A program made the translations under genes and the position numbers. 64,000 nucleotides of DNA from an uncultured Candidatus Saccharibacteria bacterium. GTDB lineage: Bacteria > Patescibacteriota > Dojkabacteria > JAOAGR01. Positions 17,802 through 50,361 of the stretch are shown here, piece after piece. Position 1 is the first letter of the stretch. Each line of letters opens with the position of its first letter. The stretch lies in the NCBI GenBank assembly GCA_964503755.1, contig CAZDBO010000004.1, positions 14,042 through 78,041 on the forward strand, given 5' to 3'. Under the pieces are notes generated by a model that saw only the letters and a list, made by a program, of their open reading frames with translations, ran no database searches and was not told where the DNA came from.

Positions 17802-18890
17802 ATGAAAAAGGATTATTATGAAATACTTGGTGTCAGCAGAAATGCTACACAAGAAGAAATAAAAAAAGCTTTTCGCAAAAAAGCTGCACAACTGCATCCT
17901 GATAAGAACAAAGCTCCAGATGCACATGAAAGGTTTAAAGAATTAAATGAAGCATATCAGGTATTATCTGATGAAAATAAGAGACGAACCTACGACCAAT
18001 TTGGAACTGCAGATTTTTATAATACTGGTGGAGGAAGTGGATTTAACTATCAACAGTTTGATATTGATCTTGATGATTTGTTTGGGATGGGATCTATCTT
18101 TGGTTCACCATTTGAAGAGTTTTTCGGTGGACGCAGGCAAAAGAATAAACCTAGAAAAGGAACTGATGTATATGCCCAGGTAGAAATAACTTTAAATGAA
18201 GTTGTCACAGGAACAGAGAAAGAGATAAAATACACAAGATTAGATAAGTGCAAAGCTTGTAATGGAAGAGGTGGATCAAAAGTAGAAAAATGTCAGACAT
18301 GTAAAGGATCAGGCAGAGTTCAACAAATAAACCGTACTCCATTTGGCAATATCCAATTTGTTACGACATGTCCAACATGTAATGGTCAAGGTGAAACTGT
18401 AGCTGAAAAATGTACTATTTGCAAAGGTCAAGGCACAATTCAAAATTTACATGTAATAAAAATAAAAATCCCCGCCGGAATAGAACATAAAATGAATTTA
18501 AGATATGAGGGTGAAGGCAATGTAGGTTCAAATGATATACTACGTGGAGATTTATTTGTAGAAATCTTAGTTAAAAACGATCCAAAATATAAACGTGTTA
18601 ATAACGATATTGTACATGAAGTAGAGGTTGATGTAATAGATATGCTTATCGGACAAAATATAAATGTAGAAACATTCGATGGCATAAAAAACATAGCCAT
18701 AAAACCAGGCACAAGTCCATTTGAACAGATTGTTTTACATGGTCTTGGGATACCAGATTTAAGGACTAAAAAAAGAGGAAATTTTATTGTGATACTAAAA
18801 CCAGTCATGCCTAAAAACATAACAGAAGAACAAAAACAATTGTTATTAAAATTTAAAGAATTAGAAAAAAAGAAGAGTATATGGATTTAA
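17802..18890 (+). CDS. dnaJ: chaperone DnaJ
   Basis: J domain (DYYEILGV...HPDKN), four CxxCxGxG zinc-finger repeats, C-terminal domains. Confidence 0.9.
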
Positions 18891-19588
18891 AGCATAAATC
18901 AAATCTTGCGAAAATATTTTTTAGTACAACGATAATTTTGACTATACTAATAATCTTAGTATCGTTAATTTACAATACGCCTAAACAAATACATATAACT
19001 TCAAATAGACCTGAAAATATTGATCTCTACAAAAATGAATTGGGAAAATATCTATCTAAAAAAATTTATTTCACAGTTAATCCCGCGGACATCGAAAAAG
19101 AACTAAAAGTCAAATATCCATTTATTCAAAAAATAAATATAAATAAATTTACTATTTATGGATTTATCATAAACATAGAGGAATTTTTACCTATTTTGGA
19201 GATAATTTCTGCTGATAAAAAATATCTTTATATTGACAATAACCTAAAAAGCATTTTATTGGACCAGCGATATGAATCAAATAATATTATTGTATCAATC
19301 GAATATCAAAGTATAAATCCAGAACAAATAGAAATCTTCTTCTTGAAAAATCTATTAGATTTGTGTATTAAAATACAATATAAATTACAAAAAATACAAA
19401 GAATTTATTTTGATAATTTAGGAATGTTGACTATAATATTAAAAGATAATAGAGCTATAAAATTAGATCTAACAGAAACATTTAGTGATATACAAACACA
19501 AAGTGAAAAACTCCAAATGCTTCTAGATGACAAAATAGGTTTTGGTAGCGCTGATTTAAGATTTAAAGACAATATAATAGTAAAATGA
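18881..19588 (+). CDS. ftsQ: Cell division protein FtsQ/DivIB-like: N-terminal TM plus a POTRA-like domain, immediately upstream of ftsA
   Basis: Topology and gene context. Low sequence conservation. Confidence 0.5.
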
Positions 19589-19594
19589 AATATA

Positions 19595-20935
19595 ATGGCT
19601 ACACACCAAGATATAATAACAGCAGTTGATATAGGTTCTTATAAGATATCCACCATCATATGTAACGTAGAATATAATGAAAACATACCTATAGTTTCCG
19701 TAATAGGATGTGCTACTGTTCCATCAAAAGGTGTAAGAAAAGGCGTAATAGTAAATATTAATGAAGTGGTAAATTGTGTACAACAGTGTTTGCAGGCTGC
19801 AGAAAAAATGGCCGGAATATCAGTGACTGATGTAAATGCATCTATCAACGGAATGCATATAATGTCTAGCAATAACAAAGGTATTGTATCTGTTACTAAC
19901 GAAGAGATTGATCCAAATGATATCAGAAGAGTTATTGAAAATTCCAAAAATACCGCTATTTCTCAACAAGTCAGAAAAATCATTCATGTTATCCCAAGAG
20001 AATTCATCGTTGATACACAAAAGGGGATAAAAGAACCTCTTGGTATGCAAGGATCAAGACTTGAAGTAGATACTCATATTATTTCAGGATTAAATACAGC
20101 TCTTAGTAATACAGAGAAAGTAATTATAGAAGCAGGTTATAGACCAAATGTTACATTTGCAGGACTTGCTTCAGCCCAAAGTGTACTGACTGTAACAGAA
20201 AAAGAATTGGGAGTAATGGTATTAGATATTGGACATGGATGCACAACTATAACTATATATCAAGAAGAATCTATTTGTTTTTCTGGTGTGGTAAATTTAG
20301 GTGGACAATCAATTACAAGTGATTTAGCAATTGGGCTGCAGATACCTATAGATGAGGCCGAAAAACTCAAAAAGAAAATAGGAACAATAATAGAAAGGCA
20401 AAGTTTTCCTAATAAGGAATCTGGAAATATACCTAGTTATTTAAGAAATGACAAAGGCAGAAATGACAAATTAAGCTTGTCTGATATGAAAGAAAATGAA
20501 GAGGATGATGATCTACTTGATATAAGTGAATTAAAAATACCAGGTTTGCCAAAGCTATCGAAGAGAATTTATCAGGAAATCGTTACTTGTAGATTAGATG
20601 AAATATTTCAGATGGTAAACAAAACCGTATCAAACGCCGGATTTACTACAAGGATGCCAGCAGGCATAGTGCTAACAGGTGGAACTGCAAATCTTTATAG
20701 CATCAAGGATTATTGTCGCAACTTTTTTCGTGTATTGACAAGGATTGGATATCCTCAAGGTCTAACGGGTCCATTAATTGATGAAGTTAGTGATCCATCC
20801 TTTGCTACCGCTCAAGGTCTCATATTGAAGGAGATAAATAATCAGTCATATAATGTAGAATCTGAACACCTAGAACCAGAAGGAAATGGATTACTAGACA
20901 AAGTAATAAATTTCATTAAAAATCTAACTGATTAA
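19595..20935 (+). CDS. ftsA: Cell division protein FtsA, actin-like, with a charged ~70-aa insertion
   Basis: N-terminal DIGSYKI phosphate-1 motif, 446 aa, followed by ftsZ. Confidence 0.85.
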   Translation: MATHQDIITAVDIGSYKISTIICNVEYNENIPIVSVIGCATVPSKGVRKGVIVNINEVVNCVQQCLQAAEKMAGISVTDVNASINGMHIMSSNNKGIVSVTNEEIDPNDIRRVIENSKNTAISQQVRKIIHVIPREFIVDTQKGIKEPLGMQGSRLEVDTHIISGLNTALSNTEKVIIEAGYRPNVTFAGLASAQSVLTVTEKELGVMVLDIGHGCTTITIYQEESICFSGVVNLGGQSITSDLAIGLQIPIDEAEKLKKKIGTIIERQSFPNKESGNIPSYLRNDKGRNDKLSLSDMKENEEDDDLLDISELKIPGLPKLSKRIYQEIVTCRLDEIFQMVNKTVSNAGFTTRMPAGIVLTGGTANLYSIKDYCRNFFRVLTRIGYPQGLTGPLIDEVSDPSFATAQGLILKEINNQSYNVESEHLEPEGNGLLDKVINFIKNLTD

Positions 20936-44919: not shown

Positions 44920-47835
44920 TCACAAACTTTCCATTCTTACTTGTACTGTATGATCATCAACTTCAATAGAAAAACTACCAGCATCCAAATTTGTCATGAC
45001 AATCTCTTTTATAAATACCTCAGCTTTTAATTTATCTGTGAACTCATGTACCAATGCTTTCACAACATCCGAATCTGTATCTAAAAAGATTTTTATCATT
45101 TGTCCCATTTGCATACCATTTTGCTTCCGTAATACCTGTAATTCTCGCTTTAATTCGGCATATAGTCCTTCTTTTCTAAGTTCATCATTAATATCAGTAT
45201 CCAAATATACAACACAGTAATCATTTTCTGTCGATGGCATATTTTGAATTTCGTGATTCTCAACTCTTACTTCTTTGACATTTACTTCATCTTTTACAAC
45301 TTCAAGATATTCCTGACCTAGTGTTCTATCAGATTTGAATACTACTACCAACCTGGACAGAGGCTGTTTTACTTTTATACCATTTTCCGAACGTATAAAA
45401 AGACCAAAAGTACAAATATCTCGTGTCATATCCATATTTTCTATAAGACTAGAGTCATAAGCATCAAAATCAGGATAATCTTCCATATGAATAGATTCTT
45501 TAGCATCCGCGATAAATGGTCTTACAATATTTTGATACATATATTCAGGCAAAAATGGGGCAAATGGTGCTAGCAAAAGAATACCTTTTGTAAATACATA
45601 ATACAAAGTTTCTAAAGCGTCTTTTTCTCCATTAGCAAACCTATCTCTACTTCGTCTAATAAACCATTTTGAAATATCTAGGAAGAACGCCTTCACAGTT
45701 TCCATAGACTTTTGGATATCATAATTATCCATATATTTTGTAACCTCTATTGCAGTCTGTTTTAATCTCTCTACAACCCATCTATCTAATATATTGTATT
45801 TGGATTTTAATTCATAATTTTTATAAAAATTTGGCTCAGGTGTCCAATTATTCAATTCTGCATAAGTTGTAAGATAAACATAAATATTCCAAAAAGGAAT
45901 TAAAAATTCTTGCTGAATAGTACGTGCAGTTTTATCAGAGATAGTTGCATCTTCGCATCTCACAATAGGAGTTGAGAAGAAATTTATACGCATAGTATCA
46001 CCACCATAGTTTTGTATCATTACAAGTGGATCTGTATAGTTTTTTTTGCTTTTACTCAATTTTTGTCCGTTATCATCTAACACTAATCCATTTACGACAA
46101 CATTCTCGAAAGCTTCTTTTCCAAACAAAGCAGTACCTATAGCATGTAGTGTATAAAACCAGCCTCTTGTCTGATCTACTCCTTCGGAGATAAACTGGGC
46201 CGGATATTTTTGCTCAAATTTTTCTTTATTTTCAAACGGATAATGGAACCTAGCAAATGGCATTGCGCCAGAGTCATACCATACATCCAATACGTCAGGT
46301 ATACGAGTATACGTTTCACCTTCGTATTCAAAAGTTATCTCGTCTATGTATGGTCTATGTGGATCATCGATTCTTTTACCAGATAATTTCTCTAACTCCT
46401 CATAAGATCCTATTACCATTACTTTTCCTGATGGACTTTTCCATATCGGTAGCGGAGTACCCCAATATCTAAATCTTGATATAGACCAATCTTTTATTTC
46501 AGCCAACCAATTTCCAAATCTACCTTCTTTGATATGTTCAGGTATCCAATTTATTCTTCTATTGTTTTCTACCAACTTATCACGTATCTTACTGACCGCT
46601 ATATACCACGAAGTAATAGGTTTGTAGATCAAGGGTGTGTTCGTGCGCCAACAAATAGGCATATCGTGTTCATAATCTTCATATTTGAAAAGTAAATTTT
46701 TATTCTTTAAATATTCAACAATCTTGGGATTCGCATCACGATAATTCATACCTGCAAAATCCTTTATTACATCCAAAAAGTCACCTTGATCATCCAACAC
46801 ATCAATTGATTTTATTCCAATTTGATTGAAAATCTCATTATCCTCTGCACCGTAAGGCGCTAAATGTACAACGCCAGTTCCAGATTCTGTAGTCACATGA
46901 AAGCCATAAACAACTTTGAAACAATTTTCCCTACCTATGAAATAATCAAATAATGGTTCATATTCCAGGTCAACAAGAGTTTCAGGACTAACATCAGCAT
47001 CCAATACATGATATTTTCGATCAGCAAAAACTTTTTCTATCAATTCATTTGCTACATAAAAATTTTCCCCGTCAGAATGAACTTTTGAATATGTGATATT
47101 TTCTCCAACAGCCAATGCAAAATTTGTCGGCAATGTCCAGGGTGTAGTAGTCCAAGCAAGTATGTATTCGTTATCTCGGTCTTTAATTTTGAATTTAACA
47201 GTTACAGCTGGATCAACTACTGGTTTATATCCACCAAGTGCCACCTCTGCATTAGAAAGTACAGTACCACCACGCGTAGAATATGGAACAACCTTAAATC
47301 CTTCATACAGCAAACCCTTATTATAAAGCTCTTTCAAAGACCACCAAATAGACTCAATATAACCTTTATCCATTGTTGCATATTCTTCTCTATCATTAGT
47401 CAGACGTCCCATTTTTTTCTCTAGCTCAACAATACCAGCCCTATACTTTAGTACCAAATTTCTACAATCTTCATTGAATTTTGCTACACCGTATCTTTCA
47501 ATATCCTTTTTTTCTTTGAATTGATGAATTTTCTCTACTTCTATTTCTACAGGTAAACCTTGACAATCCCATCCCAAGGATCTTTCAACCTTGTATCCTT
47601 TCATCGTCCAATATCTAGGGATTAAGTCTTTAATAGCAAATGTAAGCATATGACCATGATGTGGATCACCGTTTGCCGTTATTGGCCCATCATAAAATGT
47701 TTTTACTTTATCATTTGGTCTTACATCTATTGATTTGTTTAATATATCGTTTTCTTCCCAAAATTTTAGTATTTCTTGTTCTATTTGATAAAAATTTACT
47801 TTTTGTTTTTCTCTCTTTATTTTTTTATTTGACAT
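44920..47835 (-). CDS. ileS: isoleucine--tRNA ligase
   Basis: HMGH and KMSKS (KLSKSKKN) class I motifs, 971 aa. Confidence 0.95.
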   Translation of the reverse strand: MSNKKIKREKQKVNFYQIEQEILKFWEENDILNKSIDVRPNDKVKTFYDGPITANGDPHHGHMLTFAIKDLIPRYWTMKGYKVERSLGWDCQGLPVEIEVEKIHQFKEKKDIERYGVAKFNEDCRNLVLKYRAGIVELEKKMGRLTNDREEYATMDKGYIESIWWSLKELYNKGLLYEGFKVVPYSTRGGTVLSNAEVALGGYKPVVDPAVTVKFKIKDRDNEYILAWTTTPWTLPTNFALAVGENITYSKVHSDGENFYVANELIEKVFADRKYHVLDADVSPETLVDLEYEPLFDYFIGRENCFKVVYGFHVTTESGTGVVHLAPYGAEDNEIFNQIGIKSIDVLDDQGDFLDVIKDFAGMNYRDANPKIVEYLKNKNLLFKYEDYEHDMPICWRTNTPLIYKPITSWYIAVSKIRDKLVENNRRINWIPEHIKEGRFGNWLAEIKDWSISRFRYWGTPLPIWKSPSGKVMVIGSYEELEKLSGKRIDDPHRPYIDEITFEYEGETYTRIPDVLDVWYDSGAMPFARFHYPFENKEKFEQKYPAQFISEGVDQTRGWFYTLHAIGTALFGKEAFENVVVNGLVLDDNGQKLSKSKKNYTDPLVMIQNYGGDTMRINFFSTPIVRCEDATISDKTARTIQQEFLIPFWNIYVYLTTYAELNNWTPEPNFYKNYELKSKYNILDRWVVERLKQTAIEVTKYMDNYDIQKSMETVKAFFLDISKWFIRRSRDRFANGEKDALETLYYVFTKGILLLAPFAPFLPEYMYQNIVRPFIADAKESIHMEDYPDFDAYDSSLIENMDMTRDICTFGLFIRSENGIKVKQPLSRLVVVFKSDRTLGQEYLEVVKDEVNVKEVRVENHEIQNMPSTENDYCVVYLDTDINDELRKEGLYAELKRELQVLRKQNGMQMGQMIKIFLDTDSDVVKALVHEFTDKLKAEVFIKEIVMTNLDAGSFSIEVDDHTVQVRMESL

Positions 47836-47860
47836 AGTTTTTTTATTAATAAAACTAAAT

Positions 47861-47894
47861 AAAAAAGGCTCCCTGAAAAATTCAGGGAGCCTTT
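47861..47894 (-). terminator. Strong intrinsic terminator on the minus strand (GGCTCCCTGAA stem, AAA loop, then a U-run), 25 nt upstream of the ileS start codon
   Basis: Perfect 11-bp stem read directly. Confidence 0.7.
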
Positions 47895-48081
47895 AATGCT
47901 CGTTACCGTCCTGGTTCCTTGTATGGTCAAAACTTTAACAATGCCATACAAGCTTTCATAGTCCGTTTCGTGAACCACACGTTGGGTTTTACTGACATGA
48001 ATAAATCATGCTTTCTTCCCAATCCCTCGCTGCTGATAACAGCTAATAACGGGAATTTAAGCTTAAATGATTGTAAATGAT
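47895..48081 (-). promoter_or_regulatory. GC-elevated leader between rplY and ileS ending in the terminator above. Candidate T-box or attenuator leader for ileS.
   Basis: A terminator abutting the start codon. A possible specifier-like UUAUCAG (AUC, Ile) sits in a CUG...CAG hairpin. The segment GGAACCAGGACGGTAACG resembles the T-box consensus only partially. Confidence 0.3.
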
Positions 48082-48738
48082 TTACTCTTTATCGTCAACT
48101 TCTTCCTCTTTATCTGATTGTTGCGATGCTAAAATCTCTTGTGTAACAGCATTTACATCTATTGTTTCCTCAGTAGTAGATGCGGACGTTGTAGCAATTG
48201 TTAATTCTTTATCTTCTTCACGAACAAGTGAAATGCCTTCTGGAAGTTGTATATCACCAACACTAATACTCTCTCCTGCTCGTAGATTTTTTACGTCAAC
48301 GACAATCTCATGAGGGATATTTGCAGGAAGACCTCTAACTTCGATTTCATCTGTTACTTGTATCACAATCAAACCTTGTTCTTTTACAGCGATAGAAATT
48401 TCCTCATTTATAAGCACTACAGGCACCTTTGTTGTTATTTCCTCATCCATCTTTACCTCACGAAATGTAACATGAATATAATCTCTAGTCACCGGATCAA
48501 TCTGAACCTCATCAATAAATACATTGTGTACTGTATCATTCAACTTCAATTTTATAATAGTTGTATGTCCCGCCTCACGAAATAATGAATCAAATTGTTT
48601 TTTATCGACTACAGTGTTAAAATTACCTTTATATCCATAAATGGATGAAGGCAATTTACCTTGTCTTCTTAATGATTTATTTTTTTTACCCAATACTTCT
48701 CTTAAGGTTGCTTGTAAAGTTAATTTTGATGTTGACAT
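48082..48738 (-). CDS. rplY: 50S ribosomal protein L25 / general stress protein Ctc, with an acidic C-terminal tail
   Basis: L25/Ctc N-terminal beta-barrel region, 218 aa. Confidence 0.75.
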   Translation of the reverse strand: MSTSKLTLQATLREVLGKKNKSLRRQGKLPSSIYGYKGNFNTVVDKKQFDSLFREAGHTTIIKLKLNDTVHNVFIDEVQIDPVTRDYIHVTFREVKMDEEITTKVPVVLINEEISIAVKEQGLIVIQVTDEIEVRGLPANIPHEIVVDVKNLRAGESISVGDIQLPEGISLVREEDKELTIATTSASTTEETIDVNAVTQEILASQQSDKEEEVDDKE

Positions 48739-49187
48739 AACTTTTTTGATATTATCCTCACCGCAGAAAATCTGCGATTACTTTAAATATCAGCAAATGA
48801 TAACATAAAAATTTTAATAATCAATAAGTATTAAATCTTGATAACCAATTAATTATAAAAATACCAAATACAATTCGCCCATTATAACTTTTAGTAAAAT
48901 TAGGTTAATCTAAAACTTTATCTTGAATCAAGAATACACATCAAAAATAGATATTTGTTTTATAAAATAAAATTCGAAGAATTAAAACGCAAGAATTGAA
49001 GAATTATTGATTTTTGTTGAAAAATTATATTTATGTTACTCAAAATCATGAAAATCATGAAAATCAACAAAATTTATTATAATTAAGATATACATAAATT
49101 TCTTTATTTATTCAGGCCGATATAACATCAGAAATTTGACCATAGAAAGAAAAGTTCTTTATCTTTTCTCTTATACAGTGTCGTTTT

Positions 49188-49261
49188 TGGCTTCCCCGCT
49201 AGGATTCGAACCTAGACCAGAGCGTTAACAGCGCACTGTGCTACCATTACACCACAGGGAA
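49188..49261 (-). tRNA. tRNA-Asn (anticodon GTT)
   Basis: Hand-folded. U1-A72 acceptor as in E. coli tRNA-Asn, D-arm GTGT-AATGGTA-GCAC, anticodon loop CTGTTAA, T-arm CTAGG-TTCGAAT-CCTAG, discriminator G, encoded CCA. Confidence 0.8.
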
Positions 49262-49765
49262 CCGACCAATGTATTCTAGCAATATATCAATATCATGTCA
49301 AAATAGAAACACAATAAACTTAATATTCACATATAGATACATTTAGTATAATACTTTTCGAAAACTTAAAATTTATTTATGTAAAATATCTATACAACAT
49401 AATTTTTTATAATTCAAAAAATCTAAAAAACCCGTTGAGCCTCATCCAGCTAACTGACTAGAACAATCCTGTCCTACTCTACAACAAACTCCCTGGCCTT
49501 GTGCATTTCTACCAGCACAATATTCTCACCCACCACAAAATCTGTCATGACATATTTGATTACATACAGTTTCTGCACTTGTACCTGGTGGTGCACACTT
49601 GTTATTGCCATCTTCACATTGTATTGGTTGACAACGATTTGACGGACATTGAGCGTAACTTATTTGATCACATGGCAATGTATCTATTGGATTGGGACTT
49701 GTGTTAGATGATGGGGGTGTTTGAGTTGGTTGAGGATTTTGAGAAGGTGGTCTATTACTACCACT

Positions 49766-50221
49766 TCAATCACTACCACCACTACCTCCTGTTGGATTTG
49801 GCAATCGAGTTGGTATCCTACTTGGATCTTGAGGCATTGAACAGTTTGTAGCAATACAATTATTTTGTAATGCTATATTTGCCGCTTGATATGATTGTGC
49901 CCATGCATGTACCTGTTGATTAATATTTGAACAGTCTTCTCTATCACATATACTACGCACTGAATTTTCACAACCCCTTCTAGCTTCATTAGTATTATCA
50001 TTACATTTTTGAGCCAAACATTGATTTATACATGTAGTATATTCTCTATATTTATTTTTCCATTCTCTTCTAATGTTTTCTACTTCAACATATTCATTAG
50101 AACATAATACATAATAATTTGCGGCCGTATCCTCCGGATTTACATTCCTATTCATTATCGTATACGCCAGATAACCCGCAACACCCAAAAGTAAAAATAT
50201 AAATACAAAAATTATTATCAA
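49766..50221 (-). CDS. Cys-rich secreted or membrane-anchored protein (N-terminal TM, 12 Cys). The coding signal continues past the TGA for another ~107 codons containing a second in-frame TGA, down to about 49442.
   Basis: Manual translation beyond the stop: SGSNRPPSQNPQPTQTPPSS...CDQISYAQCPSNRCQPIQCEDGNNKCAPPGTSAETVCNQICHDRFCGG*EYCAGRNAQGQGVCCRVGQDCSSQLAG*. Confidence 0.5.
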   Translation of the reverse strand: MIIIFVFIFLLLGVAGYLAYTIMNRNVNPEDTAANYYVLCSNEYVEVENIRREWKNKYREYTTCINQCLAQKCNDNTNEARRGCENSVRSICDREDCSNINQQVHAWAQSYQAANIALQNNCIATNCSMPQDPSRIPTRLPNPTGGSGGSD

Positions 50222-50361
50222 TAAAACCCTTCTTCGATCCCTCGCGGATCAAACAAACTTAACCTTTTATTAAACATACCTGTACCTGTACCTATAACTA
50301 TATTTATGCTAGCAAAATGTATTAGTATTTACAATCTAAGCGATAAATAAAATAATGGAAT

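Follow-up and report, generated by a model that had tools for sequence, protein, structure and literature searches.

The 246-nt region between rplY and ileS in the 64-kb stretch of DNA analysed here (hereafter the window) is, in our judgement, very probably a T-box riboswitch specific for isoleucine and of the short-Stem-I type, which would control ileS by transcription attenuation. The original prediction had proposed a candidate T-box or attenuator at this place. The T-box reading is supported by a match (E about 3e-12) to R1, a covariance model built from an alignment of 21 Patescibacteria ileS leaders from which the window was left out (alignment A1), by an antiterminator helix that is mutually exclusive with the terminator, and by the covariation of a leader family that is itself tied to the Rfam T-box model RF00230.

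The ileS Locus and Its Promoter-Like Site

All the features of the leader lie on the minus strand, between two genes and downstream of a promoter-like site:

44920..47835, minus strand: ileS, the regulated gene (TIGR00392, E 2.3e-245), with its ATG at 47835
47836..48081, minus strand: rplY–ileS intergenic region, 246 nt
48070..48098, minus strand: promoter-like site, TTGACG (48098..48093), 17-nt spacer, TACAAT (48075..48070), sigma-70-like, 10/12 consensus matches
48082..48738, minus strand: rplY (bL25/L25-Ctc), the upstream gene

According to its IleS protein, the host belongs to the Patescibacteria, near Candidatus Dojkabacteria, and the best IleS identities to other loci are about 60%. Over the leader, a separate assembly from Logan (L161) shows 100% identity. 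No tRNA-Ile gene is found in the 64-kb window. As had been noticed from the letters, the leader is elevated in GC (0.38–0.43 over positions 47850–48049, against 0.15–0.24 in the neighbouring intergenic region 48750–49150), and the whole rplY–ileS intergenic region folds better than 200 of 200 dinucleotide-preserving shuffles (z = −5.4).

The promoter-like site overlaps the stop codon of rplY (48084..48082), and transcription of the leader would be expected to start near 48063. A TATAAT-like −10 box is likewise found 16–17 nt 5' of the Stem I hairpin in the relatives L003, L004, L006, L010, L084, L162 and L165. Elsewhere in the window, the tRNA-Asn(GTT) gene (49188..49261, minus strand) carries a near-consensus promoter directly 5' (49273..49301, minus strand; TTGACA, 17 nt, TAGAAT, extended TG), which favours the use of sigma-70-type promoters in the host genome.

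Beyond this tRNA gene, a 298-codon frame (49373..50266, minus strand), Cys-rich and of low complexity, is broken by four TGA codons in its own frame, three or more of them in Gly-like contexts (GGSD*SGS, CGG*EYC, LAG*GST). TGA is an ordinary stop codon elsewhere in the window, so this frame would be a pseudogene or else be recoded locally; it has no Pfam or Rfam match and is not a structured RNA (z = +0.6). Another apparent TGA read-through frame (18857..20935, plus strand; 244 + 448 codons in frame) was rejected, as it really consists of two adjacent genes, the second being FtsA.

Architecture of the Leader from Stem I to Stem III

The 5' part of the leader can be resolved into the following modules:

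48023..48054, minus strand: Stem I, short form, basal helix UCCC (48054..48051) / GGGA (48026..48023)
48043..48029, minus strand: specifier hairpin of Stem I, GCUG (48043..48040) / CAGC (48032..48029), 7-nt apical loop UUAUCAG
47982..48022, minus strand: Stem II, base UUGGG (48022..48018) / CCCAA (47986..47982), apical hairpin 48011..47994
47959..47981, minus strand: candidate Stem IIA/B pseudoknot, IIA CGUG (47981..47978) / CACG (47972..47969), loop UGGUU (47977..47973) able to pair with GACUA (47963..47959)
47955..47953, minus strand: AAG ('RAG' motif)
47952..47944 and 47926..47918, minus strand: Stem III, 9 bp, CUUGUAUGG / CCAUACAAG

The hairpin said to present UUAUCAG is found at 48043..48029, the Ile codon AUC occupying 48037..48035 and being followed by a purine, the A at 48034. 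This specifier (AUC + A) fits the amino acid of the regulated ileS gene, in the window as well as in those relatives that were examined. Made of a 4-bp stem and a 7-nt apical loop, Stem I of the window has no sequence for a distal domain (no IDTM), and a conserved GA (48028..48027) follows the specifier hairpin. Across the leader family, the stem of this hairpin covaries (GCUG, GUGG, GCGG, GAGG, CUCG, GGGA, CCGG and others) and its loop is conserved as NNAUCAN. A canonical K-turn at the base of Stem I is not claimed, the 5' 'GA' position being variable in the family and reading UA in the window.

Stem II has purine-rich strands that resemble an S-turn (AAGAAA at 48017..48012 and AGUAAAA at 47993..47987). 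Across the family, the helix at its base covaries, with 95.7% of cells paired and double changes in 5/5 pairs, and the segments GGAAGAAA and AGUAGAAC are near-invariant in alignment A1, as is the AAG. The role of the RAG motif in T-boxes has been described (PMC11297988). As for the IIA/B pseudoknot of the window, 9 of 200 shuffles do equally well or better, in a test of low power given helices of only 3–5 bp. On visual comparison of the relatives, the two strands of IIB vary together (CCAG/CUGG, UCGG/CCGA, UUGA/UCAA, AUGUA/UACAU, UAGCU/AGCUA), and we regard this pseudoknot as a possible module, the least secure of the ileS leader.

Antiterminator, Discriminator Bulge and Terminator

The 3' part of the leader holds two competing structures and the bulge expected to meet the end of the tRNA:

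47883..47913, minus strand: discriminator/antiterminator, A1 helix CAGG (47913..47910) / CCUG (47886..47883), A2 helix GAGC (47901..47898) / GCUC (47890..47887), loop AUUAAAG
47909..47902, minus strand: discriminator bulge, ACGGUAAC, counterpart of the T-box bulge UGGNACC
47855..47894, minus strand: intrinsic terminator, stem 47894..47881 / 47877..47864 of 14 bp (11-bp core and three A-U pairs), loop UUU

The terminator proved to be as first described, with a perfect 11-bp stem (GGCUCCCUGAA at 47891..47881, loop UUU, UUCAGGGAGCC at 47877..47867) followed by the U-run UUUUUUAUUU. Its U6 run ends at 47861, which agrees with the distance of about 25 nt given for the ileS ATG (47835). No promoter-like site is found from the terminator to the ATG, again in line with the original prediction; the essential ileS gene consequently sits behind a strong terminator and requires conditional readthrough. 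A scan over 2 kb returned two terminator-like sites, against 0.6 expected from shuffles, and none that would be proper to rplY ahead of the ileS leader. Moreover, no sequence like a Shine-Dalgarno is found in the hairpin of the window, the output of which is a hairpin with a U-run, not Shine-Dalgarno sequestration.

The segment held to resemble the T-box consensus in part, GGAACCAGGACGGUAACG, is present at about 47918..47901. When the consensus AGGGUGGNACCGCG (A1, the 7-nt bulge UGGNACC, A2) is compared with the corresponding stretch of the window, AGGACGGUAACGAG, both the A1 and A2 helices form. An antiterminator exclusive of the terminator, the existence of which the proposal had left to be checked, can therefore be drawn from A1 (CAGG/CCUG), the bulge (A)CGGUAAC and A2 (GAGC/GCUC). 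Its 3' half and the 5' core of the terminator have the strand GCUCCCUG (47890..47883) in common, the 5' strand of the terminator (AAAGGCUCCCUGAA) containing the 3' strands of both A2 and A1. By energies alone, the antiterminator reaches −6.1 kcal/mol and the terminator −22.9 kcal/mol. Such an imbalance between a weak antiterminator and a strong terminator is usual in T-boxes, where it is overcome by the uncharged tRNA.

The bulge of the window departs from the consensus in having C instead of U as first base, A in sixth place (shared with L003 and L004) and an additional unpaired A. Its GGU can form pairs with the bases expected in the 3' ACCA end of tRNA-Ile (C75, C74 and A73). All of the 40 relatives have a bulge starting with UGGN (mostly UGGUACC, with UGGUAAC in L003 and L004), whereas CGGU occurs in the window only. 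There, the C would face A76 of the tRNA, and the base that precedes it is an unpaired A, against a paired closing G of A1 in the relatives, so that the two changes adjoin the site where aminoacylation is sensed. No close relatives in which the conservation of CGGU could be followed were found, the nearest leaders (L162 and L165) having UGGU.

A Family of ileS Leaders in Patescibacteria

The original prediction had named the Rfam T-box model RF00230 as a means of verification, and on this point the window is negative: there is no match at gathering score (93 bits) over the 64 kb, nor any at E ≤ 10 when 551 nt or 183 nt were searched. By itself this is an outcome that the original prediction had set as refuting it, but the alternative antiterminator pairing, the lack of which it had also named, does exist. 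This failure is due to the missing distal part of Stem I, which the model requires. The same model is matched over its whole length by six relatives (L084, L004, L006, L003, L010 and L074; 31–55 bits, E 2.5e-9 to 2.7e-3), which fall short of the gathering score owing to a deletion of 74 distal Stem I positions; a match with precisely this deletion identifies the leader family as a T-box with a truncated Stem I. Other Rfam matches in the window (PyrR, Phe_leader, BSnc120) are weak, far below the cut-offs, and align to the terminator alone.

When the intergenic region was searched against 80 loci with blastn and nhmmer, a single weak match was obtained (L067, E 0.05), in which the hairpin loop UUAUCAG is shared with the window and the stem differs on both sides (GCGG/CCGC vs GCUG/CAGC). 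A pattern scan revealed the same hairpin arrangement upstream of ileS in many loci. R1 matches the window at 47881..48056 (minus strand) over model positions 1–159 of 159 (52.6 bits, E 3.3e-12). No other match in the 64 kb is significant, the next best having an E of 0.34. The model also finds the element in 38 of 160 loci, to which L162 and L165 (Candidatus Dojkabacteria AP024679.1) are added to give 40 Patescibacteria loci, including many Saccharibacteria MAGs.

The comparison with related ileS leaders, which had likewise been called for, thus uncovered homologous elements in these 40 loci, with strong covariation of Stem I, Stem II, A1 and A2. RNAalifold applied to alignment A1 predicts Stem I, the base of Stem II, A1 and A2, with double (compensatory) changes in 19 of 20 pairs. 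In the model-based alignment of the family, 93.3% of the cells are paired, against 62.4% in shuffles and 30–47% when the partners are slid.

These results bear on the simplest reading of the locus, namely that the hairpin is a plain rplY terminator through which ileS is transcribed by readthrough, the resemblance to a T-box being due to chance. The lack of an Rfam T-box match in the window and the lack of another terminator for rplY would agree with it, but it leaves unaccounted for the full-length match to an independently built model, the specifier codon fitting ileS and the presence of an exclusive helix. Furthermore, the region has the fold score and the GC richness of a structured RNA, and a chance resemblance is contradicted by the covariation of the family and by the RF00230 matches of the relatives. 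We consider this reading extremely unlikely.

Nor does the leader look like an element of another kind. A promoter-like site and a terminator bracket about 200 nt of structured RNA, as they would in a stand-alone gene for a trans-acting small RNA, and a terminated leader would accumulate at that very size. Against this, the element is always placed immediately 5' of ileS or, as at L067, of an operon that includes ileS, and no small RNA family is matched beyond terminator-driven noise. A leader-peptide attenuator, the other form that the original prediction allowed for, is not borne out either, since three-frame translation of the leader yields no Ile-rich short ORF in any reading frame. Taken as one alternative, the small RNA gene and the leader peptide are very unlikely, even though the ileS leader RNA might conceivably play a role in trans beside its role in cis. 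An SRP RNA helix-8 motif (CAGG..GUAA..AGCA) and a 6S-like small RNA gene were also considered and rejected, there being no SRP or 6S match and the flanking pairs failing to form.

The family is diverse in its arrangement downstream of Stem III. In the Saccharibacteria-type leaders (L052, L074, L056, L029, L031, L061, L030, L034, L068, L067, L078, L059 and L071, e.g., L056:2181-2277; also L008, L013 and L076), the helix before the U-run takes as its 5' strand the loop and 3' strand of Stem III, not the 3' half of the antiterminator, while its 3' strand is a near-copy of the 5' strand of Stem III, located downstream of A1. An intact A1/UGGUACC bulge/A2 is thereby carried at the tip of a terminator helix of roughly 17 bp. 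Such a terminator would rival Stem III, not A1/A2, and we know of no description of this layout for T-boxes. Two other leaders (L084:1420-1470 and L010:2420-2480) are devoid of a U-run, and the 3' strand of their hairpin (..AGAGG) ends 1–2 nt before the ileS AUG. They look like sequestrators, the only ones among the relatives, in which case the family would mix transcriptional and translational outputs. Finally, at L067 (1085-5380), the Ile T-box lies about 1.2 kb upstream of ileS, before a small ORF of 199 aa and another of 193 aa that overlaps the start of ileS, and the leader appears to control a three-gene operon.

Divergence or Decay of the Window Leader

The CGGU bulge raises the question of whether the leader of the window still works, and we deem it likely, but not assured, that it does. 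It might instead be a decaying T-box that no longer senses the charging of the tRNA, its terminator having become a fixed, leaky attenuator as well as the terminator of rplY, with ileS expressed by basal readthrough. Three observations could be read in this way. First, the U-to-C change at the base pairing with A76 and the loss of the closing G of A1 are seen in the window alone. Second, the element is lost in five of the closest ileS relatives (L081, L082, L083, L163 and L164), being present at L084, L162 and L165. It is therefore dispensable in this clade, and its patchy presence at similar IleS identity to the window (57–69%) implies repeated loss or gain in the Dojkabacteria-like clade. 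Third, the R1 score of the window, 52.6 bits, is low for the family, the seed members of the model reaching 76–145.

However, non-seed members whose bulge is a normal UGGN do not score higher (39–65 bits), all the other modules of the window are intact, and the overlap between terminator and antiterminator has been kept. The A1 and A2 helices of the window are unlike those of its relatives yet still paired, which points to continued selection on the switch. Besides, if antitermination did not occur, a terminator of −22.9 kcal/mol followed by U6 ahead of an essential gene present in single copy would come at a cost. Overall, we regard decay as a real rival but an unlikely one and retain the reading of a divergent T-box.

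Comparison with Known T-Boxes

In its architecture, the window leader resembles the Class III leaders of actinobacterial ileS genes (Nocardia farcinica and Mycobacterium tuberculosis; PDB 6UFM, 6UFG), the likeness being judged from published descriptions (PMC10482949, PMC7583486). In each case the regulated gene is ileS, Ile specificity comes from an AUC with a purine after it, and Stem I is short, lacking the distal double T-loop that binds the tRNA elbow and presenting the specifier in an apical loop. They also share a Stem II with purine-rich strands (S-turn-like in the window), the IIA/B pseudoknot (a candidate in the window), the RAG motif, Stem III and the A1/7-nt bulge/A2 arrangement. 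They differ in the size of the apical loop (5–6 nt in Class III vs 7 nt in the window), in the bulge (UGGNACC vs CGGUAAC), in the host (Actinobacteria vs Patescibacteria) and, above all, in the output, which is usually a Shine-Dalgarno sequestrator in Class III and an intrinsic terminator with a U-run in the window.

This last difference has to be weighed, since T-boxes of Class III, with their short Stem I devoid of the elbow-binding double T-loop and their dependence on Stem II, are said to 'mostly regulate translation initiation' (PMC10482949), and transcriptional T-boxes are stated generally to need a long Stem I and contact with the tRNA elbow (PMC7583486), a rule that we counted against our reading of the window. 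Yet the output in the window and in most of its relatives is a hairpin followed by a U-run.

With the transcriptional T-boxes of Class I (Bacillus subtilis tyrS; RF00230), the window has in common an antiterminator whose 3' half is the 5' half of the terminator, along with Stem II, the IIA/B pseudoknot (again a candidate in the window), Stem III and a T-box-like sequence. In contrast, the 74 distal positions of the Stem I model (AG bulge, distal loop, IDTM) are absent in the window, and the specifier sits in a terminal loop, not in an internal loop as in Class I.

The Patescibacteria family defined by R1 has its modules in the order seen in the window, along with the conserved motifs, and the window matches the model over its full length. 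The window differs in its CGGU bulge, found in no other member, and in a longer basal helix in Stem I. The classical terminator layout is common to the window, L003, L004, L006 and L162, whereas the Saccharibacteria members nest A1, bulge and A2 inside the terminator helix.

Proposed Mechanism

From this architecture, the following course of events may be proposed. Transcription would begin at the promoter overlapping the rplY stop codon, and the nascent Stem I, Stem II and IIA/B pseudoknot would fold into a groove, in which the apical-loop AUC (followed by A) would pair with the GAU anticodon of tRNA-Ile. With an uncharged tRNA, the 3' ACCA end is free and would base-pair to the bulge GGU, steadying the weak A1/A2 helices; as long as these are held, the terminator would be blocked and the RNA polymerase would enter ileS. 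If the tRNA is charged, or if none is bound, GCUCCCUG would pair downstream, the terminator of 11–14 bp would form and transcription would stop near 47860, 25 nt before the ATG. The rplY transcripts, which have no terminator of their own, would end at the same site. The sequence modules, the exclusive helices with their energies and the homology to a covarying family tied to RF00230 stand as results, and the transcription start, the binding of the tRNA, the direction of the regulation and the tolerance of C for U in the bulge are inferred.

Significance

The window leader is a genuine but divergent Ile T-box, in a lineage and a sub-family that escape standard annotation. Lacking the distal part of Stem I, as in Class III, it is overlooked by Rfam, and Rfam-based annotation overlooks the whole, widespread Patescibacteria ileS leader family with it (relatives at 31–55 bits against a gathering score of 93, and no match for the window). 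In TBDB, the short-Stem-I model was run only on Actinobacteria and on class I matches with a truncated Stem I (PMC7778990). Our literature search found no paper joining T-boxes with Patescibacteria, CPR or Saccharibacteria, and tRNA-sensing regulation in the reduced genomes of Patescibacteria appears to be unrecorded; short-Stem-I leaders ending in terminators may nonetheless have been reported earlier.

We lean, at a little better than even confidence, towards the view that the window leader, like most of its 40 relatives, is a functional T-box that terminates transcription while dispensing with the contact to the tRNA elbow held to be required for co-transcriptional (kinetic) control, and that the window copy also works with a C opposite A76. 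Such a large natural set of short-Stem-I leaders ending in terminators offers a direct test of the elbow-contact rule for transcriptional control, while the CGGU bulge of the window provides a natural variant at the base pairing with A76, beside the site where aminoacylation is sensed. If this view is true, the CPR would be a reservoir of an unannotated class of T-boxes with at least three designs of expression platform: the classical one, that of the Saccharibacteria (with a terminator that rivals Stem III and surrounds the acceptor-binding element) and the sequestrator.
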